Assembly (NCBI GenBank): GCA_029907165.1
Contig: JARYMK010000001.1
Coordinates: 6,661-70,660, forward strand
Direction: 5' to 3'
Source: Anaerolineae bacterium
GTDB taxonomy: Bacteria > Chloroflexota > Anaerolineae > DTLA01
DNA length: 64,000 nt
Every line of letters begins with the position of its first letter. The first letter of the stretch is position 1. A program made the translations under genes and the position numbers. The notes beneath the pieces are model-generated. The model made no database searches. It was not told the DNA's origin and saw only the letters and a list, made by a program, of their open reading frames with translations. Below are positions 1,077 to 40,530 of the stretch, one piece after another.

Positions 1077-1123
1077 CGCGGGCGCGATTCTACGCAACCA
1101 ACGGAAAGGAGGCGACTTGCCCG

Positions 1124-2839: not shown

Positions 2840-2873
2840 CAGCCGTGTAACGAGGATAAAAGGAGGATAATCC

Positions 2874-3413
2874 ATGGCGAAAGTCAAGGTTGCAACAGAT
2901 TGGCTGGCCGCGTGCGCAGGGTGCCACATGTCCGTGCTGGACATGGATGAGCGGCTCGTCCAACTGCTGGACAAGATAGAACTCACGTCCACGCCCATCA
3001 CCGACCTGAAGCACCCGCCCAAGGAGGGCGTTACCGTCGGCATTCTCACGGGCGCCATTTCCAACACCACCAACATAGAAGTCGCCAAGCAGATGCGCGA
3101 GCGGTGTCAGATTCTCATCGCGCTGGGCGACTGCGCGGTGTTCGGCGGCATCGTAACCATGCGGAATTTCTTTGACATGAACGAGGCCCTGAAACGCGCC
3201 TATGTGGAGACCGAAGGCACCGTGGATGGCCAAATCCCCTGCTCGGAGGAACTGGGGAGGCCGGTGCGGGTGTGCGCGGTCAACAACATCGTCAAGGTGG
3301 ACATCCACATCCCTGGCTGCCCGCCGTCGCCGGACGCCATCTACTACGCCCTGTCGGAGTTGCTGGAGGGCCGGATACCCGTCCTGACCGGCGACAACCT
3401 GAAGTATGACTGA
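2874..3413 (+). CDS. hoxY: [NiFe] hydrogenase small (delta) subunit, group 3 (HoxY/HydD-like).
   Basis: RBS AAAGGAGG precedes ATG 2874. MAKVKVATDWLAACAGCHMSVLDMDE…GDCAVFGG…HIPGCPP carries the proximal 4Fe-4S cluster Cys pattern of soluble NiFe hydrogenase small subunits. Confidence 0.85.
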   Translation: MAKVKVATDWLAACAGCHMSVLDMDERLVQLLDKIELTSTPITDLKHPPKEGVTVGILTGAISNTTNIEVAKQMRERCQILIALGDCAVFGGIVTMRNFFDMNEALKRAYVETEGTVDGQIPCSEELGRPVRVCAVNNIVKVDIHIPGCPPSPDAIYYALSELLEGRIPVLTGDNLKYD

Positions 3414-3463
3414 CCGTCATGCTCGCCAGGTCCAGGATTTGACCCTAGACAAGGAGCGCAACC

Positions 3464-4885
3464 ATGCAAAAGATCACGATAGAACCCGTAACGCGAATTG
3501 AGGGCCACGCTAAGGTTACCATCCACCTGAACGACCAGGGCAAGGTGGAGCGGGCCTTCTTCCACGTGAACGAGTGGCGTGGGTTTGAGAAGTTCAGCGA
3601 GGGGCGGCCCTTCTTTGAGATGACGCAGATTACCCCGCGCATCTGTGGCATCTGCCCGGTCAGCCACCACTTGGCGTCGGCCAAGGCGTGCGACCGCGTT
3701 GCCGGTGTCGAGCCACCCAGGACGGCCAAACTCCTGCGCGAACTGATGCACATGGGCCAGTTCATTCAGTCCCACTCCATGCACTTCTTTGAACTGGCGG
3801 GGCCGGACCTCCTGCTGGGGTTTGACGCGGACCCCGCCATCCGCAACGTGGTGGGCATCGTCCAGGCGAACCCCGAACTGGCGCTGAAGGCGGTGCGTCT
3901 GCGCGGCTTTGGCCAGGACATCATCAAGCGTCTGGGCGGCAAGCGCGTGCACCCGGTCTTCGCCGTCCCGGGCGGCGTCAACGCGCCCCTGTCCGTCAAG
4001 GACCGCGACGCTATCCTGAGCCAGTTGGACGAGATGACCGAGGTCATCAAGACCGGCATCGCCATCGGCAAGCAGTGGTATGAGGCCAACCTGGACCTCG
4101 TCAACCAGTTCGCTGTGTTCTCGTCAGGCTATATGGGGCTGGTGGACGAGGAGGGCGGCCTGCAACTATACGACGGCAAGGTGCGACTGGTGGACAAGGA
4201 CGGCCGCAAACTGGAGGAGTTTGACGCCCAGGACTACCTGACGTACATCGGTGAGCACGTGGAAGATTGGTCGTACCTGAAGTTCCCCTTCTACCGCAAG
4301 ATGGGTTGGCCCAACGGCACCTACCGCGTTGGCCCGCTGGGGCGCCTGAACGCCGCCACCAAGATCAACACGCCCATGGCCAACGAGGAGTTCAAGAACT
4401 GGAAGTCCATCAACGGCGGCAAGCCGGTAGAAGGCACGCTCTGGTTCCACTACGCCCGCCTGATAGAAGACCTGTATACCATTGAGCGCGTCCGCGAGAT
4501 TCTGGAGGACCCCGACATCCTGTCCACGGACATCGTCGCGAATTCCACGGGGTTCGTGGGCCAGGGCGTCGGGTGCGTAGAGGCTCCGCGCGGCACGCTG
4601 TTCCACCACTACCAGACCGACGCCAACGGCATGTTGACCAAGGTCAACCTCATCGTCGCCACCGGCCACAACAACTGGGCGATGAGCAAATCGGTGGAAA
4701 TGGTGGCCAAAGCCTTCGTAGAGGGCACCAAGTTGACCGAAGGCATGCTCAACCGCGTGGAGGCGGCCATCCGCGCCCACGACCCGTGCCTGTCCTGCTC
4801 CACCCACGCCGTCGGGGCCATGCCCATCGTGATTGAGATGTACGGCCCGGATGGTGCACTGGTGCACTGCCTGACGCGCGACTAG
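3464..4885 (+). CDS. hoxH: [NiFe] hydrogenase large (catalytic) subunit, group 3 (HoxH/HydA-like).
   Basis: The N-terminal RIEGH and [10 protein letters not shown] motif (L1/L2) and the C-terminal [10 protein letters not shown] Ni-binding motif are present. Length is 473 aa and the RBS AAGGAG precedes the start. Confidence 0.9.
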
Positions 4886-4906
4886 ACGGGTAACCGAGGA
4901 ATCCCG

Positions 4907-4948
4907 CAGACCTCCGAGGGTCTTCCTGACCTCGGAGGTCTGCTTTTG
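4907..4948 (+). terminator. Rho-independent terminator after hoxH.
   Basis: A perfect 13-bp inverted repeat CAGACCTCCGAGG…CCTCGGAGGTCTG is followed by CTTTTG. Confidence 0.7.
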
Positions 4949-5029
4949 ACGCCCTTGCCCCGTCGGATACAATAACGTTCAACCGCAAAGACGCGCCAGG
5001 ACGGTCACGGGCGCGCTGGGACTAGACAA

Positions 5030-5515
5030 ATGAGACGGACCCTGGTCATCGGATACGGGAACCCCTACCGCCGCGACGATGGCGTGGCGTTGCACGTCGC
5101 CAACTTCCTGCGGGCCACGCAGGGGCTGCGACCTCTGGCCCTGGACGAAGACGGCCTGGACGATTGCGGCCATCCCCTGGACACGGTGGTGCTGCACCAG
5201 TTGCTGCCCGAAATCGCCCCCATGCTGGCCGACTACGACCTGGTCGTGTTCGTGGATGCCCATACCGGCGTGATACCGGATGACGTCCGCGTACTTCCCG
5301 TGCAGGAGGAGTACGGCTTCCAGGCGGTTACCCATCACATGAGCCCGGGCATGATGCTGGCGCTGGCCCGTGCGGCGCGGGGCCGTGCACCGGAGGCCGT
5401 GCTGGTCTCCATCCGGGGCGAGGATTTTGACTTCGGCGACGGGCTGTCGGCGGGGTGCAAGGCCCGCGCGGAGACGGCCGTCCGTGCCATCTTGGACATG
5501 GCCTGCAGGGAGTAG
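5030..5515 (+). CDS. hoxW: Hydrogenase maturation endopeptidase (HoxW/HycI/HybD family).
   Basis: The N-terminus MRRTLVIGYGNPYRRDDGVALHV is the GxGNxxxxDDGxG signature of hydrogenase C-terminal processing proteases. It sits adjacent to hoxH and the hyp genes. Confidence 0.8.
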   Translation: MRRTLVIGYGNPYRRDDGVALHVANFLRATQGLRPLALDEDGLDDCGHPLDTVVLHQLLPEIAPMLADYDLVVFVDAHTGVIPDDVRVLPVQEEYGFQAVTHHMSPGMMLALARAARGRAPEAVLVSIRGEDFDFGDGLSAGCKARAETAVRAILDMACRE

Positions 5516-5521
5516 GTCGCC

Positions 5522-5863
5522 GTGCACGAACTCCCCGTTACCGAGCAAATCCTCAAGGTTGTGCTGGATCACGCGCGCAAGGCGGAGGCGCACCGCGTCG
5601 TGCACGTCAATCTCGTCATCGGCGACCTGACCACGTTCGTGGACGAGAGCATCCAGTTCTACTTTGATTTCCTGTCGCGCGGGACCGAGGCGGAGGGGGC
5701 GGCTCTGCACATCCGCCGTATTCCGGCGCGCGTGCGGTGTCATGCCTGCGGCGGTGAGTTCGCGCCCGACGGAGTGGACTGGCGCTGTCCCCATTGCGGC
5801 GGCCTGGGCGGGGAAGTTCTCGCCGGCCGTGAGTCGTACATAGAGAGCATTGAGGTGGAATAG
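5522..5863 (+). CDS. hypA: Hydrogenase nickel insertion protein HypA.
   Basis: GTG start. MHELPVTEQIL…CHACGGEF…CPHCGG is the HypA MHE motif plus the CxxC…CxxC zinc site. The protein is 113 aa. Confidence 0.85.
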   Translation: MHELPVTEQILKVVLDHARKAEAHRVVHVNLVIGDLTTFVDESIQFYFDFLSRGTEAEGAALHIRRIPARVRCHACGGEFAPDGVDWRCPHCGGLGGEVLAGRESYIESIEVE

Positions 5864-5867
5864 CCCC

Positions 5868-6533
5868 ATGAGGAAAGTGGAAGTCGTAACCGACATCATG
5901 AGCGCCAACGACCAGATTGCCCAGGAGAACGCGGCGGCGCTGCAATCTCACCGCATCCTCGCGGTGAACCTGATGGCATCGCCCGGGGCCGGCAAGACCA
6001 GCCTCATCCTGCAGACTGCGCGGGCGCTGGACGGCCGCCTGCGCCTGGGCGTGATTGAGGGCGACGTGGCCTCGCGCATTGACGCGGACAAGGTGGCCGC
6101 CGCGGGGATTCCCGTGGTGCAGATCAACACCGGCGGCGCGTGCCACCTGGACGCGCCCATGATCCGCCAGGCGCTCCGTGCGCTCCCGCTGGACGAGATA
6201 GACGTGCTCATCGTGGAGAATGTCGGCAACCTCATCTGCCCGGTGGAGTTCCGCTTGGGCGAGACGCTGCGCGTCATGATCGCCAGCGTGCCCGAAGGCC
6301 ACGACAAGCCCTACAAGTACCCGGGCATCTTCACGGCGGTGGAGGCCGTCGTCATCAACAAGATGGATTTGGCGCCCTACGTGGATTTTGACCTGGACGC
6401 GCTGCGCGAGGCCATACGGGGCATGAACCCCCGCGCCGAAATCTTTGAGGTCTCCTGCCGCACGGGCGAAGGCATTGACCGATGGGCCGACTGGCTCTGG
6501 ACCCAGTGGCAGGCGCACAGGTCGGCGAAGTAG
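5868..6533 (+). CDS. hypB: Hydrogenase nickel-incorporation GTPase HypB.
   Basis: The ATG follows the hypA stop. The P-loop GSPGAGKTSL, the CH motif (GGACHLDA) and ENVGNLICP are present. An alternative TTG start lies at 5850. Confidence 0.85.
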   Translation: MRKVEVVTDIMSANDQIAQENAAALQSHRILAVNLMASPGAGKTSLILQTARALDGRLRLGVIEGDVASRIDADKVAAAGIPVVQINTGGACHLDAPMIRQALRALPLDEIDVLIVENVGNLICPVEFRLGETLRVMIASVPEGHDKPYKYPGIFTAVEAVVINKMDLAPYVDFDLDALREAIRGMNPRAEIFEVSCRTGEGIDRWADWLWTQWQAHRSAK

Positions 6534-6554
6534 GGGGAGAAGGCGGTCCCGGAC

Positions 6555-8942
6555 ATGGCCTCGGTTGTCGCCAATCGGTTCAAGGTAACTGGCGTTGTGC
6601 AAGGGGTGGGCTTTCGCCCGTTCGTGTACGGCCTGGCCACGGGGCTGGGCCTGCGCGGTTGGGTCATCAACACGTCGTCGGGCGTGGTGATTGAGGCGGA
6701 AGGCTCGCCCAAGGCCCTGGATGTCTTCGCGCGCGACCTGGTGGCGAAGGCCCCACCCGTGGCGCGCATAGAGACCGTGCAGCGGGAGGAGATTCCGCCC
6801 AACGGCTGGGAGCGGTTTGAAATCCGCGAGAGCCGGGCCGAGGCTGGGTATGTGCTCATCTCGCCGGACATCGCCACCTGCCCCGAATGCCTGCGCGAAC
6901 TGTTTGACCCCAACGACCGCCGCTACCGCTATCCGTTCATCAACTGCACCAACTGCGGGCCGCGCTTCACCATCATCGCCGACGTGCCCTACGACCGGCC
7001 CCTGACCACCATGGCCGCGTTCCAAATGTGCCCGGAATGCCAGGCCGAGTACGACGACCCGCTGGACCGCCGATTCCATGCCCAGCCCAACGCCTGCCCC
7101 GTGTGCGGGCCGCGGGTGTGGCTTGCGCCCGCGTCGGCGGAGGATGGCGAGGCGCTGACGCCGCCCGCAGGCGACCCGGCCAGCGCCGAGGTAATCGCCG
7201 AGGCCGCGCGCTTGCTTCGGGAAGGCGCCATCCTCGCCATCAAGGGCTTGGGCGGGTTCCACCTGGCCTGCGACGCGACCAACCCCGACGCGGTGCGCAC
7301 GCTGCGGGAACGCAAGCGCCGTCCGGCGAAGCCCCTGGCGGTGATGATGTCCTCGCTGGACGAGGTCCGCCAGCACTGCGAGATCACGCCCGACGAGCAG
7401 GCGCTCCTCACCTCGCGCCAGTGCCCCATCGTACTCCTGGAGTGGAAGCGCGACTCCACGGTTGTGGAGGAGGTGGCGCCGTGCAACCGCTACCTGGGCG
7501 TGATGCTCCCCTACACGCCACTGCACCACATCCTGCTGCGCGACGCCGGGCGGCCGCTGGTGATGACGAGCGGCAACCTGTCGGAGGAGCCCATCGCGCA
7601 GGACAACGAGGAGGCCTGGCGTCGGCTGCGCAACCTGGCCGATTGGTTTCTGCTCCACAACCGGGCCATCTACGCCCGCTACGATGACAGCGTCTGGTTT
7701 GTGCCGCGCGTCCCCGACGGCAAGGGAAGCGCCCAGTCGGTGCCCCAGCCGCTGCGCCGCTCGCGGGGCTACGCGCCGTACCCCGTGCGCCTGCCCTTCC
7801 ACGCCCGCACGGTGCTTGCCGCCGGCCCGGAACTCAAGAACACCTTCTGCATCACCCGCGATGAGCACGCCTTCGTCAGTCCCCACATCGGCGACATGGA
7901 GAACCTGGAGACGCTGGAGCACTACGAGACGGCGATGGGCCTCTACGAGCGGCTGTTCCGCCTGCGGCCCGAGGCGATTGTGCACGACTTGCATCCCGAC
8001 TACCTGGCGACGCGCTACGCCCACGAGCGGGCCGAGCGGGAGTGCCTGCCCCTTGTCGGCGTGCAGCACCACCACGCCCACATTGCAGCATGCATGGTGG
8101 ACAACGGCATCACCGAGCCGGTCATCGGCGTGGCCCTGGACGGCACAGGGTACGGCCTGGATGGGCGCATCTGGGGCGGCGAGTGGCTCGTCGCCGACCT
8201 GCGCGGGTTCCGCCGCGCCGCGTGGCTGGAGCCGCTCCCGCTCCCTGGCGGCGACGCGGGCATCCGCAACCCGTGCCGCATCGCCTACGCCTATCTCCGC
8301 GCGCTGTTCGGCGAAGTCCCTGCGCTGCCCTTCCTGGCGCAGATGGACGAAGCCGAAATCGCCGCCGTGCAGCGGCAGGTGGCGCGCGGGCTGAACACCG
8401 TTCTGACCACATCCTGCGGCCGCCTGTTTGACGCCGTAGCAGCGATGGCGGGAGGGCGGGGCCGCGTTACCTATGAGGCGCAGGCGGCCATTGAGATGGA
8501 GATGGCGTCGCAGGCTGACGAGAGCGAGTCCTACGGGTACTTCTTCCGCTGGGCAGAACCGCTCTCGTGGGGGAACACGGATGCCCTGCCCCCGCTGGCC
8601 TGTGCCTTTGAAGTCGCCCTAAAGCCGCTGCTGGCGGGCGTGGTGCGCGATGTCCAGGCCGGGCGAACGCTGGGCCAGGTGGGTGGGCGCTTCCACCACA
8701 CGCTGGCGAACATGATCGCCGACCTGTGCTGCATGATCGCGCAGGGCACCGGCCTCACGACGGTGGCCCTGTCGGGCGGCTGCTTCCAGAACCGCCTGTT
8801 GCTGGAACAGTCGGTGGGCGAACTCCGACGGCGCGGGCTGCGCGTGCTGTTGCATTACCAGGTTCCGGCCAACGACGGCGGCGTGTCGCTGGGCCAGGCG
8901 GCCATTGGCCACTTCGCCCTTGAGGAGGGGCGGGCGCGATGA
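6555..8942 (+). CDS. hypF: Carbamoyltransferase HypF.
   Basis: The N-terminal acylphosphatase domain (FKVTGVVQGVGFRPFVY), two Zn-finger motifs (CPECLRE…CTNCGPRF; CPECQAEY…CPVCGPR), a YrdC domain and a Kae1-like domain are present. Length is 795 aa. Confidence 0.9.
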   Translation: MASVVANRFKVTGVVQGVGFRPFVYGLATGLGLRGWVINTSSGVVIEAEGSPKALDVFARDLVAKAPPVARIETVQREEIPPNGWERFEIRESRAEAGYVLISPDIATCPECLRELFDPNDRRYRYPFINCTNCGPRFTIIADVPYDRPLTTMAAFQMCPECQAEYDDPLDRRFHAQPNACPVCGPRVWLAPASAEDGEALTPPAGDPASAEVIAEAARLLREGAILAIKGLGGFHLACDATNPDAVRTLRERKRRPAKPLAVMMSSLDEVRQHCEITPDEQALLTSRQCPIVLLEWKRDSTVVEEVAPCNRYLGVMLPYTPLHHILLRDAGRPLVMTSGNLSEEPIAQDNEEAWRRLRNLADWFLLHNRAIYARYDDSVWFVPRVPDGKGSAQSVPQPLRRSRGYAPYPVRLPFHARTVLAAGPELKNTFCITRDEHAFVSPHIGDMENLETLEHYETAMGLYERLFRLRPEAIVHDLHPDYLATRYAHERAERECLPLVGVQHHHAHIAACMVDNGITEPVIGVALDGTGYGLDGRIWGGEWLVADLRGFRRAAWLEPLPLPGGDAGIRNPCRIAYAYLRALFGEVPALPFLAQMDEAEIAAVQRQVARGLNTVLTTSCGRLFDAVAAMAGGRGRVTYEAQAAIEMEMASQADESESYGYFFRWAEPLSWGNTDALPPLACAFEVALKPLLAGVVRDVQAGRTLGQVGGRFHHTLANMIADLCCMIAQGTGLTTVALSGGCFQNRLLLEQSVGELRRRGLRVLLHYQVPANDGGVSLGQAAIGHFALEEGRAR

Positions 8943-10036
8943 AGTTCATAGACGAGTTTCGCGACCCCCGACTGGCCCGCTCGCTGGTAGAGCACATCCG
9001 CCAGCGCGCGCACAAACCCATGCGGCTGATGGAGTTCTGCGGCGGACATACCCACGCTATCCTACGGTTCGGCATCCGGCAGGCATTGCCGCCGACGGTG
9101 GAGATGCTGTCGGGGCCGGGGTGTCCGGTGTGCGTTACCGCCGCCGCAGACCTGGACCGGGCCATCGCCATGGCGGGCGTGCCGGGCGTCATCCTGGCCA
9201 CCTTCGGCGATATGATCCGCGTTCCCGGCAGCCGCGAGAGCCTGCAGCAGGCCAAAGCGCGGGGCGCTGACGTCCGCATCGTGTACTCGCCGCTGGACGC
9301 CGTGCGCCTGGCGGAACAGGAACCGGCCCGGCCGGTGGTCTTCCTGGGCGTGGGGTTTGAGACAACGGCTCCGGGCGTGGCCGCTTCCATCCTGGATGCC
9401 CATGCGCGCGGGATTGAGAACTACTACGTGCTTTGCCTGCACAAACTCACGCCACCCGCCACCCGCGCCATCCTGGATTCGGGCGAGGTCAACCTGTCGG
9501 GAATCCTGGGGCCGGGGCATGTTACCACCATCATCGGGACGAAGGCGTGGGAGTTCCTGCCGCACGAGTACGGCGTGCCCATCGCCGTCGCGGGGTTTGA
9601 GCCGCTGGACATCCTGCGGGGCATCTCCCTGCTCGTGGAGCGGATTGCAGGGGGCGAGGCGCGCGTGGACAACGCCTACTCCCGCAGCGTGCTGCCCGAA
9701 GGCAATCGCGCCGCACAGGACATGATGAACCGTGTGTTTGAGGTGGCCGACGCCGAGTGGCGCGGGCTAGGGACGATCCCGGCCAGCGGCCTGCGCATAC
9801 GGCTGGAGTTCCAGGTCCACGATGCCGCCCTTGCATTTCCGGTGGACGTGCCGCCGTCGCGCGAACCCCCTGGCTGCCGCTGCGGAGACGTCTTGCGGGG
9901 CGTCCTGGCTCCGCCTTCGTGCCCATTGTTCGGCAAAGCGTGTACGCCGGAGCACCCCGTTGGCCCGTGCATGGTGTCGGCCGAGGGGGCCTGCGCCGCC
10001 TACTATCAGTTTGGAGATGCGGGACATGAAGGATGA
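8939..10036 (+). CDS. hypD: Hydrogenase maturation factor HypD.
   Basis: The ATGA overlap with hypF indicates translational coupling. The motifs CGGHTH, GPGCPVCV and GFETT are present. Confidence 0.9.
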   Translation: MKFIDEFRDPRLARSLVEHIRQRAHKPMRLMEFCGGHTHAILRFGIRQALPPTVEMLSGPGCPVCVTAAADLDRAIAMAGVPGVILATFGDMIRVPGSRESLQQAKARGADVRIVYSPLDAVRLAEQEPARPVVFLGVGFETTAPGVAASILDAHARGIENYYVLCLHKLTPPATRAILDSGEVNLSGILGPGHVTTIIGTKAWEFLPHEYGVPIAVAGFEPLDILRGISLLVERIAGGEARVDNAYSRSVLPEGNRAAQDMMNRVFEVADAEWRGLGTIPASGLRIRLEFQVHDAALAFPVDVPPSREPPGCRCGDVLRGVLAPPSCPLFGKACTPEHPVGPCMVSAEGACAAYYQFGDAGHEG

Positions 10037-11033
10037 GGCCATCCTGCTCGCCCACGGCAGCGGCGGGCGACTGACGCACGAACTGATCCGCGACCTGTTC
10101 CTGCGCGAGTTGTCCAACCCGTTCCTGGACGCGCTGAGCGACGCCGCCGTCCTGCCGCCGCAGAGTGGCCGCCTGGCCCTGACGACCGACTCCTACGTGA
10201 TTCGGCCCATTTTCTTCCCGGGCGGCGACATCGGCAAACTGGCGGTGTGCGGCACGGTCAACGATCTCAGCATGGTGGGCGCGCGCCCGCTTTTCCTCAC
10301 CATCGGGTTCATCCTGGAGGAAGGGCTGCCCTTCGCCGACCTGCGGCGCATCGTGCGGTCGGCGGCGCAGACGGCCCGCGAGGCCGGCGTCCAGATTGTG
10401 GCTGGCGATACAAAGGTGGTGGACCGGGGCAGCGCCGACCAGGTGTTCATCAACACCGCAGGCGTTGGCATCATCCCCGACGGCCTCTCCCTTTCGTCGA
10501 GCGCCATCCGGCCGGGCGACGCCATCCTCGTCTCCGGGACTGTGGGCGACCACGGGATCGCCGTCATGGCCCAGCGGGAGGGGCTTGGGCTGAGCACATC
10601 GCTGGCCAGCGACTGTGCTCCCCTGAACGGCCTGGCACAGGCTGTGCTGGCGTGCGGCGGCGTGCGGGTTATGCGCGACCCCACGCGCGGCGGCCTGGCG
10701 ACCACGCTGGTGGAACTGGCGCAGGCAGGCGGTGTGGGTCTGGAGATTGACGAGAGCGCCGTTCCCGTCAAGGATGCGGTGCGGGGCGCGTGCGAACTCC
10801 TGGGCCTGGACCCGCTGTACGTCGCCAACGAGGGCAAGTTGGTGGCGGTGGTGGCAGCCGAGGCGGCAGACGCTGCCCTCGCCGCGATGCAGTCGCACCC
10901 GCTGGGCCGCGATGCCCGCATCATCGGGCGCGCCACGCAAGCCCATCCGGGGCGGGTCGTCCTGAAGACCCTGCTGGGCGTGTCCCGGGTTGTGGAGATG
11001 CTGACGGGCGAGCAGTTGCCCAGGATATGCTGA
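10026..11033 (+). CDS. hypE: Hydrogenase maturation factor HypE.
   Basis: MKDEAILLAHGSGG… is the AIR-synthase-like fold of HypE. The gene overlaps the hypD stop. An alternative start lies at 10017. Confidence 0.85.
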   Translation: MKDEAILLAHGSGGRLTHELIRDLFLRELSNPFLDALSDAAVLPPQSGRLALTTDSYVIRPIFFPGGDIGKLAVCGTVNDLSMVGARPLFLTIGFILEEGLPFADLRRIVRSAAQTAREAGVQIVAGDTKVVDRGSADQVFINTAGVGIIPDGLSLSSSAIRPGDAILVSGTVGDHGIAVMAQREGLGLSTSLASDCAPLNGLAQAVLACGGVRVMRDPTRGGLATTLVELAQAGGVGLEIDESAVPVKDAVRGACELLGLDPLYVANEGKLVAVVAAEAADAALAAMQSHPLGRDARIIGRATQAHPGRVVLKTLLGVSRVVEMLTGEQLPRIC

Positions 11034-11224: not shown

Positions 11225-11740
11225 ATGCATGTACGGCCGCTGCAACAGATTCGCTCGCGAAAGGAGGTCGCCTTGAACGACAAACTCCGAGAAATCCTGC
11301 AAGCGCCCGTAACCGGCAAAGGAGACCTCATCCCGCTGCTCCAGAAGGCCCAGGAGGCCGAGGGGTACGTCTCCGAGGAGGCCATCTACGCCATCGCCGA
11401 GAAACTCCGCATCCCCGCCAGCGAGGTATTCGGCGTGCTGTCGTTCTACGCGCAGTTCCGCCTGCGTCCCATGGGCAAGCACAACGTCAAGATATGCCGG
11501 GGCACCGCCTGCCATGTGCGCGGCTCGCCCCTTATCGTTACCGCTGTAGAAAGCGAACTGCAACTGGGAAATGGCGAGGATACCACGCCCGATGGCCTGT
11601 TCACCGTAGAGAAAATCGCCTGCTTCGGCGCGTGTAGTCTGGCGCCGGTGATGGTTGTGGGCGGGCGCACCTACGGGAACTTGAGTCCGGACAAGGCGCG
11701 CCGCCTGATTCGCAAGACCGCGGAGGAAGACCATGTATAG
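11225..11740 (+). CDS. NuoE-like 2Fe-2S (24 kDa) subunit, the FdsG/HoxE-type diaphorase component.
   Basis: The thioredoxin-like 2Fe-2S motifs CRGTACHVRGS…CFGACSLAPV are present. A strong RBS GAAAGGAGG precedes an alternative TTG start at 11273. The true start is either 11225 (ATG) or 11273. Confidence 0.8.
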   Translation: MHVRPLQQIRSRKEVALNDKLREILQAPVTGKGDLIPLLQKAQEAEGYVSEEAIYAIAEKLRIPASEVFGVLSFYAQFRLRPMGKHNVKICRGTACHVRGSPLIVTAVESELQLGNGEDTTPDGLFTVEKIACFGACSLAPVMVVGGRTYGNLSPDKARRLIRKTAEEDHV

Positions 11741-13592
11741 CGATTACGCATCCCTGCGCGCCTGGGCCGAAAGCGAAATCGCCCGCACGCGCCCGGCCGA
11801 CCGAACGCGCATCCTCGTGGGCCTGGGCACGTGCGGCATCGCCGCCGGCGGGCTGGATGTCCTGGCAGCCCTGCGTGAGAAACTGGCCGACATGCCCGTA
11901 TCCGCCGAAATCGTTCCCGTGGGCTGCATCGGCATGTGTTTTGAAGAGCCGCTGGTGGACATTGTAAGACCAGGCGAGCCTCGCATCTGCTATGCCAAAG
12001 TAACCCCCAAGAGCATCCCGACCATTCTGGAAGAGCACCTGCTTCACAACAACGTGCGCAAGGATTTGGCCTTCGCGGTCATCGGCGACGAACCGTATGA
12101 CGGCGTCCCGGCCTGGAAGCAGTTGCCGTTCTTCGCCACCCAGCGGCGCACGGTGCTGCGCAATTGCGGGTTCATTGACCCTGAATCGGTGGCCGAGTAC
12201 ATCGTCCACGATGGGTACGCCGCCCTGGCGAAGGCGCTGTTTGAGATGACGCCCGAGTCTGTGATTGAGGAAGTGAAACGGTCGGGGTTGCGCGGCAGGG
12301 GCGGCGCGGGGTTCCCGACGGGCATGAAGTGGGCCTTCTGCCGTCAGTCGCCGGGCGAGCACAAGTACGTCATTTGCAACGCCGACGAGGGCGATCCGGG
12401 TGCCTTCATGAACCGCAGCGTCCTGGAAGGCGATCCCCACAGCGTGTTGGAAGGGCTCATCATCGCCGCCTACGCCATCGGCGCCGACCACGGCTACATC
12501 TACTGCCGCGCCGAGTACCCGCTGGCCATCGTGCGGCTGCGCAAGGCGCTGGAGCAGGCGCGGGCGCTGGGCCTCCTGGGCGAGCGCATCTTCGGCACCG
12601 ACTTCAGTTTTGACGTAACCATCAAGGAAGGCGCGGGCGCGTTCGTCTGCGGCGAGGAGACCGCGCTCATGGCATCCATAGAGGGCAAGCGTGGGATGCC
12701 CCGACCTCGGCCGCCGTTCCCCGCCCAGAAGGGTCTCTGGGGCCAGCCGACCAATATCAACAACGTAGAGACGCTGAACAACATCCCGCCCATCATCCTG
12801 AATGGTGCCGATTGGTTCGCTGCCGTGGGCACCGAGAAGAGCAAGGGCACCAAGACCTTCGCCCTCACCGGCAAGGTGGTGAACAGCAGCCTTATAGAAG
12901 TGCCCTTCGGCATGACGCTGCGCGAGGTCATCTTCGGCGTGGGCGGCGGCATCGCCAACGGCAGGCAGTTCAAGGCGGCGCAGACAGGCGGGCCGTCTGG
13001 CGGGTGCCTGTCCAGCGAGCACCTGGACTGGCCGATTGACTACGAGACGCTCACGAAGGCAGGCTCCATCATGGGCTCGGGCGGCCTCGTCGTCATGGAC
13101 GACTCTACCTGCATGGTGGACGTGGCGCGCTTCTTCCTGAACTTCACCCAGAGCGAGTCGTGCGGCAAGTGCATCCCGTGCCGCCTGGGAACGAAGCGCA
13201 TGTTGGAAATCCTGGAGCGCATCGTCGCGGGCCAGGGGAAGATGGAGGACATTGACCTGTTGCTGGAACTGGGCGAGACGGTGAAACTGGGTTCGCTGTG
13301 CGGGCTGGGGCAGACCGCGCCCAATCCGGTTCTGAGCACGATCCGCTACTTCCGCGACGAGTATGAGGCCCACATCAAGGAGCACCGCTGCCCGGCCAAG
13401 GTTTGCAAGGCGCTCATCACGTACCGCATCTCTGAGGAGAAGTGCACCGGCTGCACCCTCTGCGCCCGCAACTGCCCGGTAAATGCCATCAGCGGGGAAA
13501 GGAAGAAGGTGCACGTGATTGACCCCGCCGTGTGCACGCGCTGCGACACCTGTCGCCAGGTGTGCAATTTTGACGCGGTCCTCGTGGACTAG
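11733..13592 (+). CDS. NuoF-like NAD(H)/FMN-binding subunit (FdsB/HoxF-type), with an N-terminal thioredoxin-like domain and C-terminal 2x[4Fe-4S].
   Basis: The FMN/NADH-binding core GRGGAGFPTG and the SLBB/4Fe-4S region ESCGKCIPCR are present. The C-terminal ferredoxin motifs are CTGCTLCARNCP and CTRCDTCRQVC. Confidence 0.85.
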   Translation: MYSDYASLRAWAESEIARTRPADRTRILVGLGTCGIAAGGLDVLAALREKLADMPVSAEIVPVGCIGMCFEEPLVDIVRPGEPRICYAKVTPKSIPTILEEHLLHNNVRKDLAFAVIGDEPYDGVPAWKQLPFFATQRRTVLRNCGFIDPESVAEYIVHDGYAALAKALFEMTPESVIEEVKRSGLRGRGGAGFPTGMKWAFCRQSPGEHKYVICNADEGDPGAFMNRSVLEGDPHSVLEGLIIAAYAIGADHGYIYCRAEYPLAIVRLRKALEQARALGLLGERIFGTDFSFDVTIKEGAGAFVCGEETALMASIEGKRGMPRPRPPFPAQKGLWGQPTNINNVETLNNIPPIILNGADWFAAVGTEKSKGTKTFALTGKVVNSSLIEVPFGMTLREVIFGVGGGIANGRQFKAAQTGGPSGGCLSSEHLDWPIDYETLTKAGSIMGSGGLVVMDDSTCMVDVARFFLNFTQSESCGKCIPCRLGTKRMLEILERIVAGQGKMEDIDLLLELGETVKLGSLCGLGQTAPNPVLSTIRYFRDEYEAHIKEHRCPAKVCKALITYRISEEKCTGCTLCARNCPVNAISGERKKVHVIDPAVCTRCDTCRQVCNFDAVLVD

Positions 13593-13623
13593 CCACGGTT
13601 CTCGGATGGAAGGAGACGCAGAC

Positions 13624-16335
13624 ATGACCATTACGCTGACCGTAGACGGCAAGAAGGTAACGGTAGAAGACGGGGCCACGATTTTGGATGCCGCAAAGAA
13701 AGCAGGCGTGTACATCCCCACCCTGTGCGCCGATGAGGACCTGCTGCCCTTTGGCGCGTGCCGCCTCTGCCTGGTGGAAGTGCAAGGCGACCGCCGCCCC
13801 ATGCTGCCCGCATGCACGACGCCTGCCACCGACGGCATGGTGGTGCGCACGTCCAGCCCGATCATTGACAAGACGCGGCGAAACGTCGTGGAACTCTTGC
13901 TGTCCGACCACCCGGAGGACTGCCTGACCTGCCCTCAGAACAACCGTTGCGAACTCCAGCGCGTGGCGGCCTATGTGGGCGTCCGCACCAACCGCTTCCG
14001 CGGTGAGAAGCATGCCTATCCGATTGACGATTCCAACCCGTTCTACCGCCGCGATTTGGATCGCTGCGTCCTGTGCGGCAAGTGCGTGCGAACCTGCGAT
14101 GAGGTTCAGCAACTGGGCGCCATCAACTTCGCCTACCGCGGCTTCCGCACCAAAATCGCGACGGTGTTGGATCGGCCGGTGGCGACCTCCACCTGCGAGT
14201 CGTGCGGGCAGTGCGTAGACAAGTGTCCGGTGGGGGCGCTGTACCCGGAGGCGTGGCTGCGGTACGGCTTGCCTACCCGCGAAACCAAGACCATTTGTTC
14301 GTATTGCGGAGTCGGCTGCGGGTTGATTCTCCAAACCCGCGGCAACACGGTGGTGGGCGTGCGCGGCGACCCCGACAACCCCGTGAACCGAGGCCGCACG
14401 TGCGTCAAGGGGCGGTTTGGGTATGAGTTTATCAATCACCCCGACCGTTTGAAGAAGCCGCTTATCAAGAGAGACGGGGCCTTTGTGGAAGCCACCTGGG
14501 ATGAGGCGCTGGACCTGGTCGCGCAACGGCTGGCGGCGGTCGTGCGCGAAAGCGGCCCCGACGCGGTGGCACTGCTGACATCCGCAAGGTGCACAAGCGA
14601 GGAAAACTACCTACTTCAGAAATTCGCAAGGGGGGTGCTGGGGACGCACAATGTAGACCATTGTGCGCGTCTCTGACACAGCAGCACCGTGACCGGTCTG
14701 GTCACCGCATTCGGCTCCGGAGCCATGACGAACTCCATTGAGGACATGAAGGAGGCCAAGGCGTTCCTGGTCATCGGCTCCAATACGACGGAGCAGCATC
14801 CTATCATCGGGCTGAACATCCGCAAGGCGGTGCGCGAGGGTGCGAAACTGATCGTCGCCGACCCGCGCTGCATAGACCTGGCCGCCCGCGCGGATATCTA
14901 CATGTCCATCAAGCCAGGAACCAACATCGCCCTGCTGAATGGCCTGGCGCATATCATCCTCAAGGAAGGGTTGGAGGACAAAGAGTTCATCGCCGCCCGA
15001 ACCGAAGGGTTTGACGAGTGGCGGGCGGTGGTGGAGCAGTACACGCCCGAACGGGTCAGCGAGATCACCGGCGTCCCAGTGGATCGCTTGTACGAGGCGG
15101 CGCGCCTTTACGCAAGCACCAAGCCCGCCACCTTGGTGTATGCGATGGGCATCACGCAACACACGTCAGGACACCAGGGCGTGCAAGCGTGCGCTAACCT
15201 GCAACTCCTGACGGGCAATATGGGCATTCGCGGAGGCGGCCTCAACCCGCTGCGCGGCCAAAACAATGTCCAGGGCGCGTGCGACATGGGCTGCCTGCCC
15301 GATTTCTTCCCCGGCTACCAGCGCGTAACCGACGAGAAGGCCCGCGAGAAGTTCGCCCAGGCGTGGGGCGCTCGCTTCGGCGACAAGCCGGGCCTCACCA
15401 TCGTGGAGATGCTCAACGCTGCGGAGCAAGGGCGGCTGAAGGCACTCTACGTTACCGGCGAGAACCCGGTCATGAGCGACCCCGATAGCCGGCACGCGAT
15501 CCACTGCCTGGAGAGCCTGGATTTCCTCGTGGTGCAGGACATCTTCCTCTCTGAGACCGCCCGCCTGGCCGACGTGGTGCTGCCCGCCGCGTCCTTCGCC
15601 GAGAAGGCAGGCACGTTCACCAACACCGAGCGGCGCGTCCAGTTGATTCGCCCTGCCATTGACCCGCCCGGTGAGGCCCGCCCCGATTGGGAGATCGTGG
15701 CCGACCTGGCCCGCCGCACGCTGAAGGCCCTCGGCCAGACACCCGAAGGCCCCTATGCTGGCTGGGACTACGCATCACCCGCCCAGATCATGGACGAAGT
15801 CGCGGCGCTGACCCCCATCTACGGGGGCATCCGCCACAGCCGGCTGGAGAACGGCGGAATCCAGTGGCCGTGCCCGTCCCCCGACCACCTGGGCACGCCC
15901 ATCCTGCACGTCGGCAAGTTCTCGCGCGGCCTCGGCAAGTTCAATCCGGTGGAGTACATCCCATCCGCCGAGACGCCAAATGAAGCCTATCCGCTCATCC
16001 TAACGACTGGCCGCAGGCTGGAGCATTATCACACGGGCACCATGACGCGCCGCGTGGACGGGCTGAACAAACTGGCCCCGGAGGAGCGCGTGGAGATCAA
16101 CACAGACGATGCGGCCCGTCTGGGCATTGCCGACGGCGACTGGGTCATCGTGGAGTCCAGGCGTGGCCGGGTGAAAGTGCGGGCGGCCGTGGGGCGACGG
16201 TGCAGGCCGGGCGTGGTCTTCATGACGTTCCACTTCGCCGAGGCGCTGGGCAACGTGTTGACCCACGCTGCGCTGGACCCCGTGTCCAGGATTCCGGAAT
16301 TCAAGGTTGCCGCCGTTCGCGTGCAGAAGGCATAG
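13624..16335 (+). CDS. fdhA: Formate dehydrogenase catalytic (alpha) subunit, selenocysteine-containing. An in-frame TGA at 14674-14676 is read as Sec.
   Basis: The N-terminal 2Fe-2S/4Fe-4S region and the molybdopterin domain are present. The ORF caller splits the gene at TGA, but both halves are in the same frame. The flanking sequence [42 protein letters not shown] aligns with E. coli FdhF VDCCARV-U-HGPSVAGLHQSVGNGAMSNAINE. The downstream half matches FdhF/FdsA throughout (GVNPLRGQNNVQGACDMG, etc.). Confidence 0.85.
14677..14706 (+). other. Bacterial SECIS-like hairpin immediately 3' of the Sec-UGA.
   Basis: The stem GTGACC/GGTCAC (14689-14694 / 14700-14705) has an apical GGUCU(G) loop, the same loop sequence as the E. 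coli fdhF SECIS. It begins ~13 nt after UGA. Confidence 0.6.
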
Positions 16336-16679: not shown

Positions 16680-17570
16680 ATGGAAAACACGCTACAGCAA
16701 GCGCGGCTGGCCTTCATCGGAAGCGGCACCATGTCCGAGGCCATGATCCAGGGCATCCTGCGGTGCGGCGTTACGGCGGCGGGGAACATCTGGGCAAGCG
16801 GCCCGCGCAAGGAACGCGCCGCCGAGTTGACCGCGAAGTACGGCATCCATGCCACGACCGACAACCGCGAGGCCGCCCGCAACGCCGATGTCGTCGTCCT
16901 GTCGGTCAAGCCGCAGCGGCTGCGCATGGTGCTGCACGAACTGCGGGGCACGGTCCGCCCCAATCAACTCGTCATGTCCATCGTGGCGGGCGCGAAGATT
17001 TCCTACATCGCGCAGGTGCTCGGCACGCCGTCTGTCATCCGGGTGATGCCCAATACCCCCGCGCAGATCGGCGAGGGGATTTCGGTCTGGTTCGCCACGC
17101 CCCAGGTTACGCCCGAACAGCGTGAGGTAGGCCGCCGCATTCTGACGGCCCTGGGCGAAGAGATTGAGGTGGATGAGGAGAAGTTCCTGGACATGGCGAC
17201 AGCGGTCAGCGGCACCGGCCCCACCTACGTATTCCTCATCATGGAGGCGCTGGTGGACGCGGCGGTGCACCTGGGATTCTCGCGGCGCATTGCCGAGGCT
17301 CTGGTTACCAAGACGGTGCTGGGTTCGGTGCTGTTTGCCCGCCAGTCCAACATGCACCTGGCGCAACTGCGAAACATGGTTACCTCGCCAGGTGGCACCA
17401 GCGCCGAGGCCATCTACCAACTGGACAAGGGAAGCATCCGCACGGTGCTGTCCAAAGCGGTCTGGGCGGCCTACCAGAAGTCCAAACTGCTGGGCGAGTC
17501 GTTGTCGCAGGAGGCCGAGTCCGAAAGCCGCCCGAACGGCAGCCCCCCGTCAGAGAAGTTGGAGGCATAG
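16680..17570 (+). CDS. proC: Pyrroline-5-carboxylate reductase.
   Basis: MENTLQQARLAFIGSGTMSEAMIQG is the Rossmann GxGxxG motif. The ProC C-terminal dimerization region (TSPGGTSAEAI) is present. An alternative GTG start lies at 16665. Confidence 0.85.
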   Translation: MENTLQQARLAFIGSGTMSEAMIQGILRCGVTAAGNIWASGPRKERAAELTAKYGIHATTDNREAARNADVVVLSVKPQRLRMVLHELRGTVRPNQLVMSIVAGAKISYIAQVLGTPSVIRVMPNTPAQIGEGISVWFATPQVTPEQREVGRRILTALGEEIEVDEEKFLDMATAVSGTGPTYVFLIMEALVDAAVHLGFSRRIAEALVTKTVLGSVLFARQSNMHLAQLRNMVTSPGGTSAEAIYQLDKGSIRTVLSKAVWAAYQKSKLLGESLSQEAESESRPNGSPPSEKLEA

Positions 17571-17577
17571 GCGCAGC

Positions 17578-18009
17578 ATGGCACGTCAGGATGCAGGCGC
17601 GGTCGTGCGGTACAAGGTCATCCCCGGTGGTCGCAGGCCCGTGAAGACAGGCGCGGCCTATGACCTGTTTGCGCGTTTGGGTGCGCCCCTCACGCTCCAC
17701 GGCCCCACGCTCGTGCCCCTGGGCATCGCGCTGGAACTGCCCCAAGGCTACGGGGCCATCGTCAAGGCCCGGTCCAGCTCCCCGCTGCGCCACGGGTACG
17801 AAGCGCACGTCGGCTTGATTGACCCCGAGTTCAACGGGCGCGAGGTGTGCACCATCCTGGAGCCGCTCCCCGGTGCGGGGCCGGTTACCATCCAGCCCGG
17901 CGACCGCGTGGCCCAGATGTGGGTCCAGCGCATGGACGTGGAACTGGTGGAGACGGACGAGGACATCCCGTTGGGCCCCAAGGAGGGGTTCGGCAGCACC
18001 GGAACGTAG
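17578..18009 (+). CDS. dut: dUTP diphosphatase.
   Basis: YKVIPGGRRP…GYGAIVKARSS…GLIDPEFNGRE…RVAQM are dUTPase motifs. The protein is ~143 aa. Confidence 0.8.
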   Translation: MARQDAGAVVRYKVIPGGRRPVKTGAAYDLFARLGAPLTLHGPTLVPLGIALELPQGYGAIVKARSSSPLRHGYEAHVGLIDPEFNGREVCTILEPLPGAGPVTIQPGDRVAQMWVQRMDVELVETDEDIPLGPKEGFGSTGT

Positions 18010-18011
18010 GA

Positions 18012-18821
18012 ATGGCGACTGCGATTCGCTGGACGGGAGTTGGCTTCGCCCATGTGGGCGTGATGGTGGGGCTGGCGGCGCTGGCCGACCATAGCCCCGA
18101 CCTCGCCTACAGCCTCGCCCTCGCCCTGCCCGTCCCGCTCCTGTACGCCCTGTTCCGACGCCGCACACCGCCGACCGCGCCCGCGCCGTGGTGGGCGGGC
18201 CTGGCGGTGTGGGCCTTCGTCGTGCTGTCGCGGGCAGGGGCGGCGGCGCTGGTCGCTGCGGGCAAAGCCCCGTTCGCCATCGGGCCGCATCTCGCCATCG
18301 CGGGCACCGGAAGCCTGTTTGCCCTTGTGGCGCTGGCCATTCTGCTGGGCGAACGGTCGGGCGGCGCTGCGTTTGGGTTCACGACGCAGGGCGCGTTGCG
18401 GCAGGTCCTCCTGGGCGTGGGGCTGGCGCTGGCGTTGCAGGCGATCATGCGCGCACCCGCCTGGGCGACAGGCCAGTTGCGCGTGGGCGCGGGCGGCTTC
18501 GCGGCGCTGGCGCAGAGTTTCCCTACCGAATTGATGACCATCGCCCTGGGCGAGGAGAGTCTGTTCCGCGGGTACATGCAAGTCTCGTTGCAGCGCCGCT
18601 ATCCGTGGTGGTTTGCGACGTTTCTCATCTCCATGCTCTTCGGCCTGTGGCATCTCCCCGCCGCGCTCTTCGCACCTAGCCTGCTAACTCTGTTCGGCGT
18701 GGTGGGCTTCCCGTTCGCCTTCGGGCTGCTGGCCGGGGTCATGTTCCGCCTCACGGGGTCCATCTTAGGGCCAGTGGTGGCCCACGCGCTCTACAACGCC
18801 GTGAATGCCATGTTCGCTTAG
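18012..18821 (+). CDS. CPBP-family (CAAX protease-like) intramembrane metalloprotease.
   Basis: The ATG lies 3 nt after the dut stop. The protein is polytopic and hydrophobic, with EESLFRGY, FGLWH and HALYNA (EExxxR / FxxxH / HxxxN motifs). Confidence 0.75.
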   Translation: MATAIRWTGVGFAHVGVMVGLAALADHSPDLAYSLALALPVPLLYALFRRRTPPTAPAPWWAGLAVWAFVVLSRAGAAALVAAGKAPFAIGPHLAIAGTGSLFALVALAILLGERSGGAAFGFTTQGALRQVLLGVGLALALQAIMRAPAWATGQLRVGAGGFAALAQSFPTELMTIALGEESLFRGYMQVSLQRRYPWWFATFLISMLFGLWHLPAALFAPSLLTLFGVVGFPFAFGLLAGVMFRLTGSILGPVVAHALYNAVNAMFA

Positions 18822-19714: not shown

Positions 19715-20452
19715 ATGGAGAAACGGAAATTCCAGACACCTTCCATAGGGCTTCTTCTGGTCGGCGTGGCGCTGGGCCTGCTCTTGGCGCTCCAGTGGCG
19801 ATCGGCGCCCACCGCGCGCCTGACGGATACCAGTTACGCCCGCGATCGCACTGCGCTCACCATCGCGCGACTGGAAACCGAACAGGATGCCCTGAAGGCG
19901 CAGGTCGCCGAACTGCGCCAGCAACTGGACGAGCGCCAGCGTCGCGGGCAGTCCACCGACATGCTGCAGGGCCTGGCCGAGGAACTGGCGCGGCAGAAGA
20001 TGCTGGCCGGCCTGGTCGCGCTGCACGGGCCGGGCGTTGAGGTCGTCCTGAACGACAGCAACCGGCAGGTCGTCCCTTCGGTGGTGAACCCCGAGTTGTA
20101 CCTGGTGCACGACTACGACCTGCGCGACGTGGTAAACTTGCTATGGGCAGCCGGAACCGAGGCGATGTCGGTCAACGGCGAGCGCATCGTGGCCAGCACG
20201 TCCATCTACTGCGTGGGTGCTACCATCATGGTCAACGACACGCGCCTGTCGCCGCCGTATGTGATCCACGCCATAGGCCCGTCCGAGCAGCAGGAAGCCC
20301 TGCTCAAGAATCCCAAGTTTCTCGCCGAACTGCGCAACCGCGTGAGCGCCTACGGTCTGACTTTCAGCGTGGCGCAAGTTGCCGACATTGAGGTACCCGC
20401 CTATCGCGGCGGGTTCGGAGCGCTGTATGCAAGTGTCTCAGTATCTCCGTAG
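19715..20452 (+). CDS. DUF881-family membrane-anchored protein (YlxW/YlxX-like).
   Basis: An N-terminal TM segment, a coiled-coil segment (LKAQVAELRQQLDERQRR) and the conserved C-terminal DUF881 core (HGPGVEVVLNDS…VNGERIV…IMVNDTRLSPPYVI) are present. Confidence 0.7.
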   Translation: MEKRKFQTPSIGLLLVGVALGLLLALQWRSAPTARLTDTSYARDRTALTIARLETEQDALKAQVAELRQQLDERQRRGQSTDMLQGLAEELARQKMLAGLVALHGPGVEVVLNDSNRQVVPSVVNPELYLVHDYDLRDVVNLLWAAGTEAMSVNGERIVASTSIYCVGATIMVNDTRLSPPYVIHAIGPSEQQEALLKNPKFLAELRNRVSAYGLTFSVAQVADIEVPAYRGGFGALYASVSVSP

Positions 20453-21131
20453 AATCGCACACGACCACTGGGTTGCACGCATACTGCTGGCGGCGCTGTT
20501 CGTGCTCATCGGCATGCTCATCTTCGCCCAGTTCCGCAGCGAGAGCGCCCTGCGAGCGGCGCGCGTCGCGGCGTCGGGAACCGATCGGGCGGCGCTCATC
20601 AGCGGGCTTGTGGACGCCAACCTTAAGTTGCGCGAAGAGGTGGACTCCCTGCAGGCCAAACTGGCCGAACTGGAGCAGCAGGGCGGCTCGTTGGTCGTCA
20701 TGGTGGAGGAACTCAACCGGCTCAAACTCATCACTGGCCTCAGCGAGGTATCGGGGCCTGGCATTACCCTCACGCTGAATAGCCCCGTGAGCGCCACCGA
20801 GTTGCAGGACATGGTCAACGAACTCAAGAACTCCGGCGCGAAAGCCATCGCCCTCAACGGCCAGCGGCTCATCGTATCCTCGGCTATCGTCGGCACCGAG
20901 GCGGGCATCGCCGTGGACGGAACCCTCATCACCCGGCCGTTCGTGTTCCAGGTGCTCGGCGACCCCGATACCCTGCGGGTGGCGCTGACGCGGAAGGGCG
21001 GGATGCTCGCCTCGCTCCAGGCCGCCCATCCCGGATTCCAGGCCGACATCACCGTCGCCCCGTCCGTGGTGATCCCCATTTACGCCCGGAAGATTGAGTT
21101 CCGCTACGCGCAGCCGGTGGCTGTTCAGTGA
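20427..21131 (+). CDS. DUF881-family protein, tandem paralog of the previous gene.
   Basis: The architecture is the same (TM, coiled coil, SGPGITLTLNS…LNGQRLIVSSAIV…IAVDGTLITRPFVF). It overlaps the upstream paralog by 26 nt. Confidence 0.7.
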   Translation: MQVSQYLRRIAHDHWVARILLAALFVLIGMLIFAQFRSESALRAARVAASGTDRAALISGLVDANLKLREEVDSLQAKLAELEQQGGSLVVMVEELNRLKLITGLSEVSGPGITLTLNSPVSATELQDMVNELKNSGAKAIALNGQRLIVSSAIVGTEAGIAVDGTLITRPFVFQVLGDPDTLRVALTRKGGMLASLQAAHPGFQADITVAPSVVIPIYARKIEFRYAQPVAVQ

Positions 21132-21320
21132 TGCACGGGCCCGGCGAATGCGCTGCGACAACCACTGGCTGTCATTGCGCGGGCACGAAGTGCCCCAAGC
21201 AAACGCTGTGTAGTTGTCCAAGAACCCGGCTGCGCTGGGAACCCACCGCGCCCCGCAAGCGTCTACTACATGAAGTGTCGCGCGCTTCGGCGCGTTTTCG
21301 CTCGCTCAGGAGGCTTCCGT

Positions 21321-27176
<5,856 letters not shown>

Positions 27177-39014: not shown

Positions 39015-39059
39015 AGAGTTTCCCCTCGCCGGTATGCACCGGCTCTGTGGTTCAGGCCA

Positions 39060-40151: not shown

Positions 40152-40188
40152 ACTGTCCTCCTGTCTGCATGATCCGATTCTGTTCCGC

Positions 40189-40530
40189 CTACTCGCTACT
40201 CTGCAACTTGCTTTTCAGCAAGGCGACCTCGCGCTCAAAGCGTGCCTGTAGGGCCTCCATCTCCGCCTTCATCTGTGCCACTTGATCCATCAGCGACAGA
40301 ATCGCCTCTACCCCTGCAAGATTGACGCCCAACTCCTCTGTGAGACGCTGAATCTGCCGCAATCGTTCAATGTCGCTGGGCGAGTACAGCCGCCGGTTGC
40401 CCGGCGAGCGGCAGGGCTTGATCAGCCCCAGGCTCTCGTAGTAGCGCAGAGTCTGGGGATGTACCCCTACCATTTTCGCTGCCACGCTGATGACGTAGCA
40501 GGGTTCCTGATGCGACGGACTGTCGCTCAC
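40189..40530 (-). CDS. hspR: MerR-family heat-shock repressor HspR-like regulator.
   Basis: GTG start. The HTH is YVISVAAKMVGVHPQTLRYYESLGLI…RSPGNRRLYS. The C-terminal coiled coil and the position beside clpB are typical of HspR. Confidence 0.7.
   Translation of the reverse strand: MSDSPSHQEPCYVISVAAKMVGVHPQTLRYYESLGLIKPCRSPGNRRLYSPSDIERLRQIQRLTEELGVNLAGVEAILSLMDQVAQMKAEMEALQARFEREVALLKSKLQSSE

Follow-up and report, generated by a model that had tools for sequence, protein, structure and literature searches.

Does the in-frame TGA that interrupts a formate dehydrogenase gene of an Anaerolineae bacterium end translation, or does it encode selenocysteine (Sec)? The gene, fdhA (fdsA), lies in a 64,000-nucleotide stretch of contig JARYMK010000001.1, hereafter the window, in which a first-pass annotation had proposed a single gene read through a UGA with the help of an E. 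coli-like selenocysteine insertion sequence (SECIS) loop. Analysis of the reading frame, of homologues on both sides of the TGA and of the RNA downstream indicated that the UGA almost certainly codes for selenocysteine. It is very probable that fdhA is one gene for the Sec-containing alpha subunit of an FdsGBA-type Mo/W formate dehydrogenase, and that the hairpin behind its UGA is a bacterial SECIS.

The frame of fdhA was open from an ATG at position 13624 to a TAG at 16333-16335, and its sole interruption was the TGA at 14674-14676, codon 351. Read as a single coding sequence (CDS), the gene spans 13624..16335 on the forward strand, with 903 codons plus the TAG stop, and direct reading of the sequence placed a Shine-Dalgarno-like AAGGAG at 13610..13615 (+), 8 nt 5' of the ATG. 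A mechanical list of open reading frames (ORFs) gave 13519..14676 (+) and 14689..16335 (+), both in the frame of ATG 13624, matching the earlier description of two same-frame ORFs split only by the TGA. Frame, TGA and a downstream inverted repeat were all seen in the sequence, and the first-pass annotation was accurate in what it reported, apart from a spacer length that is corrected below.

Homology continued across the UGA without a break. When residue 351 was given as a placeholder, residues 3-901 of the 903-aa product aligned to FdsA of NAD-dependent formate dehydrogenases, and the structure matches included 9wxb_B (E 1e-246) and Rhodobacter capsulatus 6tg9_A (E 1e-243). The C-terminal two-thirds also aligned with FdhF of the Thermoanaerobacter kivui hydrogen-dependent CO2 reductase (HDCR; 7qv7_S), with F420-dependent formate dehydrogenase and with E. 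coli FdhH. The product passed the NCBIfam equivalog TIGR01591 (Fdh-alpha), whose cut-off is 666.25, with a score of 872.5 bits and a match to the whole profile (positions 1-672 of 672). Pfam domains were found from end to end, with Fer2_4 (aa 2-78), NADH-G_4Fe-4S_3 (85-124) and Fer4_Nqo3 (142-206) followed by Molybdop_Fe4S4 (PF04879, 219-272), Molybdopterin (PF00384, 275-697) and Molydop_binding (PF01568, 791-896), so that the [4Fe-4S], molybdopterin and dinucleotide-binding domains of a formate dehydrogenase alpha subunit were all present. The single-gene proposal was thus supported by the profile score and the FdsA alignment, and further by the TGA-type orthologues and their hairpin described below.

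UGA351 (14674..14676, +) sits inside the PF00384 domain, and the placeholder fell on the catalytic Cys of the CARVCHS/CARLCHA motif in 6tg9_A, 9wxb_B and 7qv7_S, from which, together with the conservation of TGA in orthologues, codon 351 is predicted to be a selenocysteine that ligates Mo or W. It is followed by the codon for His352 (14677..14679, +), which completes the U-H active-site dipeptide in alignments to FdsA-type structures and E. coli fdhF. By residue index the codon for Arg544 lies at 15253..15255 (+), within a PLRGQNNVQG motif that aligned to the reference structures; UGA351-His352 and Arg544 therefore reproduce the arrangement of a Sec/Cys ligand, the His after it and a conserved Arg. 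We take Arg544 to be the equivalent of active-site Arg333 of FdhH and Arg587 of FdsA. Alignment of the joined translation against FdhF and FdsA, which had been suggested as a check, accordingly gave an end-to-end match with the TGA on the Mo-ligand residue. The residue-for-residue alignment with E. coli FdhF that the first-pass annotation had claimed also holds, since the fetched K-12 fdhF sequence reads NVDCCARV-*-HGPSVAGLHQSVGNGAMSNAINE, with its stop at codon 140.

One base change would turn TGC or TGT into TGA, and a Cys-type fdhA carrying a nonsense mutation, or a sequencing or assembly error, would make the locus a pseudogene or an artefact. At first sight the protein databases favored such an error, as the closest full-length proteins (up to 65% identity) all had Cys at the site, and at least 119 of the 120 best full-length homologues in a large protein collection carried it within HCARLCH. 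When one genome was scanned for each GTDB species, at least 80 orthologous loci emerged at 48-57% identity, and the counts that follow are among the loci listed. TGA occupied exactly codon 351 in 61 of these 80 loci, which come from many phyla, and TGC or TGT did so in 18; the best match listed was L002, from an Anaerolineales metagenome-assembled genome (MAG). Cys at this site, which the first-pass annotation had named as confirming when found in orthologues of non-Se organisms, was seen both among these loci and in the full-length homologues.

Relatives of ~87% nucleotide identity were available from ENA, JGI and Logan assemblies that are separate from one another. The TGA was kept in all five that were compared in detail, and so was the hairpin, in identical form. 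Their codon changes relative to the window were synonymous over nonsynonymous by 101:20 before the TGA and by 149:50 after it, with no extra stop, a pattern that shows purifying selection downstream of the UGA. The relatives' TGA and this substitution pattern effectively refute an error or pseudogene, which we regard as extremely improbable; the TGA in most listed orthologues and the presence in the window of a hairpin specific to TGA-type genes also speak against it. The Cys-only list of top matches is a database artefact, in that Sec genes are stored as split fragments, and homology searches with a full-length query therefore make the Cys form look nearest and hide the true nearest relatives. 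When the C-terminal half was searched, the 120 best matches were mostly fragments of ~520-590 aa from NCBI, JGI, ENA and Logan gene calls that contained PF00384 and PF01568 only; some were named 'formate dehydrogenase alpha subunit', and there was no U-containing full-length entry among the matches listed.

The RNA downstream of the UGA carried the second line of evidence. A hairpin spans 14689..14705 (+), with a 5' arm GUGACC (14689-14694), a loop GGUCU (14695-14699) and a 3' arm GGUCAC (14700-14705). It had been described as lying about 13 nt downstream of the UGA; the hairpin itself was found as described, and the spacer was 12 nt (14677..14688, +), the same length in 62 of 62 TGA-type sequences. 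These 62 sequences, the window and the 61 TGA-type loci, aligned without gaps, with the helix in columns 25-30/36-41 and the hairpin in the same register in all 61 orthologues. Helix cells were paired in 99.2% of cases, all six pairs formed in 59 of 62 sequences, and the loop was GGTCT in 58 of 62. Within this alignment (A1), columns C13 and A14 of the His352 codon were invariant, as was G32, and T33 was at least 90% conserved.

Pairing was maintained through sequence change. Double (compensatory) changes occurred in four of the six stem pairs, and pair 27-39, which joins the third, synonymous positions of a Val and an Ala codon, was GC in 42 sequences, CG in 8, AU in 5 and UA in 5. The window and L002 share a compensated variant of the arms, GUGACC/GGUCAC, in which an A-U pair changes the amino acids encoded to Thr and Val. 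In 500 shuffles neither the pairing nor the covariation of the real alignment was reached, pairing fell to 19-62% when the register was shifted by 1-3 nt, and, independently, the RNAalifold consensus recovered the hairpin helix and no other helix. Cys-type genes encode much the same peptide, yet all six pairs formed in 0 of 18 and GGTCT was found in only 4 of 18, with overall pairing of 62%, near the shuffled mean of 57%. The comparative signal for this hairpin is overwhelming, and its compensated structure is conserved in UGA orthologues whereas the full hairpin is missing in Cys orthologues, as expected of a bacterial SECIS (bSECIS).

The hairpin also agreed with published descriptions. The bSECIS model calls for a loop of 3-9 nt, an upper stem of 4-16 bp, a G in the first two loop positions and a loop 16-37 nt from the UGA (PMC13188914), and the window has a 5-nt GGUCU loop on a 6-bp stem with the loop starting 18 nt after the UGA. 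Another description gives a stem of 6-8 bp and a conserved G that follows the UGA by ~20 nt (PMC4605307); the hairpin fits this too, with its invariant G at +20. The apical GGUC of the fdhF type, with its essential G23 and U24, was present as well. In a permissive Rfam search, SECIS_3 (RF01989) matched positions 14671-14729 over all 59 model positions with 32.2 bits (E 5e-6, local search).

Some Cys-type orthologues retained parts of the element. Loci L019, L021, L034 and L078 kept GGTCT at the loop position, ~12-30 nt after TGT or TGC, and, in a separate count, 3 of the 18 Cys-type orthologues still formed five of the six stem pairs. Such leftovers look like fossil SECIS remnants of the kind described for Sec-to-Cys conversions (PMC1794560).

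A further possibility was that UGA351 terminates translation, which would resume at ATG 14725 (or GTG 14689) and give two polypeptides of 350 aa and ~536 aa. In the relatives, ORF callers do report the gene as two pieces, of 350 + 538 aa, and a GGAG stands just upstream of ATG 14725. That GGAG is only 2 nt from the ATG, however, and a restart would lose the metal ligand, His352 and ~15 more conserved residues inside PF00384, while leaving the covarying hairpin of TGA-type genes unexplained. We therefore consider two separate polypeptides very unlikely.

Several observations weigh against selenocysteine at codon 351. The hairpin alone was not thermodynamically significant (z = -0.07, in a 66% GC context), and the minimum free energy structure of the 42-nt stretch was a different fold. 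The 32.2 bits obtained with SECIS_3 fall short of the gathering score of that family, 63, and none of the Rfam families reached its gathering score in the window. The bulged U17 of the E. coli fdhF SECIS, described as important (PMC8659212), was missing, as the window and the 61 orthologues aligned without gaps to a continuous 6-bp helix. For the decoding machinery, ARAGORN found no tRNA, and hence no tRNA-Sec, in the 64-kb window; NCBIfam scans of ~40 window ORFs found none of SelA, SelB and SelD, with HypE giving only a weak paralogous match to SelD; and tblastn with E. coli SelA and SelB, together with ARAGORN, found none in all fetched loci, comprising the flanks of the 80 orthologues and the close relatives.

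The lack of Sec machinery in the window and the fetched flanks would also fit a UGA351 that is read through without it, by near-cognate decoding as Cys or Trp or through a reassigned UGA, to yield a Cys, Trp or Gly enzyme, and Cys-type enzymes of the family are indeed functional (6tg9, 7qv7). Against this, TGA is a normal terminator in the window, where 11 of the 34 predicted genes end in it, and we rejected a global reassignment of UGA for that reason. The conserved SelB-type GGUCU hairpin argues for SelB-dependent decoding, and tRNA-Sec species have been reported in Chloroflexi (PMC5389517). Read-through of this kind thus seems highly improbable. As background, no other selenoprotein is linked as tightly as FdhA to the Sec-decoding trait (PMC1794560). 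We see only a slight chance that the genome lacks canonical SelB and tRNA-Sec and decodes UGA351 in some other way despite the GGUCU hairpin, and no observation points there. In a milder variant of that idea, the bulge-less 6-bp/GGUCU hairpin at a fixed 12 nt would represent one near-invariant class of fdhA SECIS across the sampled lineages, which include Chloroflexota, Bacillota, Deltaproteobacteria and Candidatus Kuenenia.

A second candidate selenoprotein gene in the window, suggested by an in-frame TGA at 21129 (20379-27176), was rejected. This TGA lies between a 250-aa and a ~2000-aa ORF in the same frame and is the ordinary stop of a DUF881 gene; a second DUF881 paralogue is at 19715-20452. 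The frame continues after the TGA with a 1968-aa bacterial alpha-2-macroglobulin that has MG, bait-region and TED domains.

Selenocysteine at codon 351 of fdhA leads to a simple proposed mechanism. UGA351 would not be read as a stop during translation, and the hairpin 12 nt downstream, with its 6-bp stem and GGUCU loop, would act as a bacterial SECIS to which SelB-GTP-Sec-tRNA(Sec) binds through its C-terminal winged-helix domains. The complex would thereby be delivered to the UGA in the A site, and selenocysteine 351 would ligate the Mo or W of the bis-molybdopterin guanine dinucleotide (bis-MGD) cofactor beside His352 and Arg544. SelB binding and actual Se incorporation are thus predicted from comparative sequence evidence, and we infer that selA, selB, selC and selD lie elsewhere in the genome. 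The metal, Mo or W, and the electron acceptor would likewise follow from homology, with NAD(P)+ as the likely acceptor given the subunits encoded next to fdhA.

These neighboring genes placed fdhA in an apparent operon. Upstream is a nuoE/fdsG-like gene (11273..11740, +) for a 155-aa thioredoxin-like [2Fe-2S] ferredoxin subunit (PF01257, E 1e-46), whose NCBIfam matches were NuoE, HoxE and formate dehydrogenase gamma; its start was also called on JGI contig L001, where the adjoining NuoF product equals that of the window. It is followed by a nuoF/fdsB-like gene (11733..13592, +) for a 619-aa NAD(H)/FMN-binding subunit, an exact GenBank match to MDH7487898.1 that scored 503 bits with TIGR01959 and contains PF01512, PF10589 and Fer4, including a C-terminal 2x[4Fe-4S] ferredoxin domain. 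As NuoE-like and NuoF-like genes stand directly 5' of fdhA, the locus looks like an fdsG-fdsB-fdsA operon, and the N-terminal NuoG-like module of the alpha subunit beside these two genes is the arrangement of FdsGBA-type enzymes. The order nuoE-nuoF-fdhA-proC was kept in the relatives at ~87% nucleotide identity.

Other features of the neighborhood were recorded alongside. Upstream of the formate dehydrogenase genes and on the same strand as nuoE-nuoF-fdhA, positions 3-11033 hold a soluble [NiFe]-hydrogenase cluster with a partial GltD-like NAD(P)-binding subunit (3-1076), a NuoG/HoxU-like 625-aa protein with a degenerate molybdopterin region (962-2839), a small subunit (2871-3413), a VhuA-like large subunit (3464-4885), a maturation protease, and hypA, hypB, hypF, hypD and hypE. 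The location of this cluster and nuoE-nuoF-fdhA on one strand suggests a formate/H2/NAD(P)H module. Downstream, synteny with the 87%-identical relatives was lost soon after proC (L083/L084 10924-12145 versus window 17570-18821). In the relatives a dUTPase and an Rce1-like gene were called directly after proC; in the scans run, no dUTPase was identified in the matching window stretch, which held only a CPBP-type protease gene at 17823-18821.

Farther away, on the reverse strand at 35401-40214, genes for RtcA (RNA 3'-phosphate cyclase), ClpB and an eRF1-like 'ribosome hibernation factor' of the MSMEG_1130/Rv2629 family adjoin one another, with RNase Z just downstream, and this neighborhood may serve stress and RNA repair. 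An 875-aa A-adding tRNA nucleotidyltransferase with N-terminal DHH/NrnA-like and CBS regions is encoded at 54084-56711, and its presence implies a split CC-adding/A-adding system.

How is such a gene represented in databases? The first-pass annotation had warned that pipelines will mis-call fdhA as truncated, and for plain ORF callers this was true, as ENA, JGI and Logan gene calls split the relatives' gene in the two pieces noted above. GenBank is probably a different matter. Of 11 window proteins tested, 10 were exact GenBank matches in the range MDH7487890-MDH7487939, which belongs to an 'Anaerolineae bacterium' MAG and a contig of 72,258 bp. Since NuoF has accession MDH7487898 and ProC has MDH7487900, exactly one, MDH7487899, falls on fdhA. 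Neither the fdhA product with X at the UGA nor the 350-aa N-fragment nor any of three possible C-fragments was in the protein collection. From the accession numbering and the absence of the halves from the collection, GenBank probably holds fdhA as a single Sec-containing CDS, and the same single-accession pattern was seen at fdhA in two related MAGs. Such genes could be flagged at little cost by a rule that looks for HCAR[LTY]-UGA-CAY, 9 more nt and then a 6-bp stem with loop GGUCU.

In comparison with known systems, this is a canonical Sec-containing, NuoEF-linked formate dehydrogenase alpha subunit with an fdhF-class bacterial SECIS, and its biology is already known. No other bacterial selenoprotein is as widespread as FdhA, which was present in 67 of 75 Sec-using bacteria (PMC1794560; PMC13188914), so the case adds no new biology; its practical value is in annotation, and the gene indicates that this Anaerolineae lineage probably uses selenium.

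Among the closest known systems are R. capsulatus FdsA, from FdsGBAD (PDB 6tg9/6tga), and 9wxb_B, which likewise combine 2Fe-2S and NuoG-type clusters with a Mo-bisMGD domain, and in FdsGBAD the partner genes upstream are also NuoE-like and NuoF-like. The systems differ in that the metal ligand of R. capsulatus FdsA is Cys whereas the window codon is UGA (Sec), that the window fdhA is followed by proC rather than by any fdsC/fdhD-like or fdsD-like gene, and that the window NuoF-like subunit has the extra C-terminal 2x[4Fe-4S] domain.

E. coli FdhF, with Sec140, has the catalytic motif CAR[VL]-U-H in common with the window protein and its UGA at the homologous codon, but it lacks the N-terminal NuoG-like Fe-S domains and aligns to residues 220-901 of the window FdhA only. 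The two SECIS elements are alike in the codons that make them up (Val-Ala/Thr-Gly-Leu...), in having GGUCUG at the identical Gly-Leu position (GGT CTG), and in forming a hairpin of ~17 nt that starts 11-12 nt after the UGA (PMC8659212). They differ in fold: the E. coli element has a 4-nt GGUC loop closed by A-U and a bulged U in its 5' arm, whereas the window has a 5-nt GGUCU loop closed by C-G on a perfect stem. The description of an E. coli-like SECIS loop thus applies to the shared GGUCUG at the same Gly-Leu codons and does not extend to the structure. The consensus of Rfam SECIS_3 (GUC UGA CAC ... gGCc AGUCU gGCc) is clearly of the fdhA type, like the window element, although the lower stem of that model is not formed in the window.

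Orthologues from Moorellales and Moorella mulderi (L006, L025; 53-57% identity) have TGA at the same codon and the same CC-GGUCU-GG apical hairpin 12 nt downstream. The SECIS that was co-crystallised with Moorella thermoacetica SelB reportedly also has a GGUCU loop. Relative to these Moorella/Clostridia-type Sec-FdhA genes, the window gene differs in its host phylum, Chloroflexota (Anaerolineae), and in arms GUGACC/GGUCAC that change the encoded residues as noted above. The hairpin of the window is better described as the bulge-less CC-GGUCU-GG form that it shares with these Moorella orthologues.

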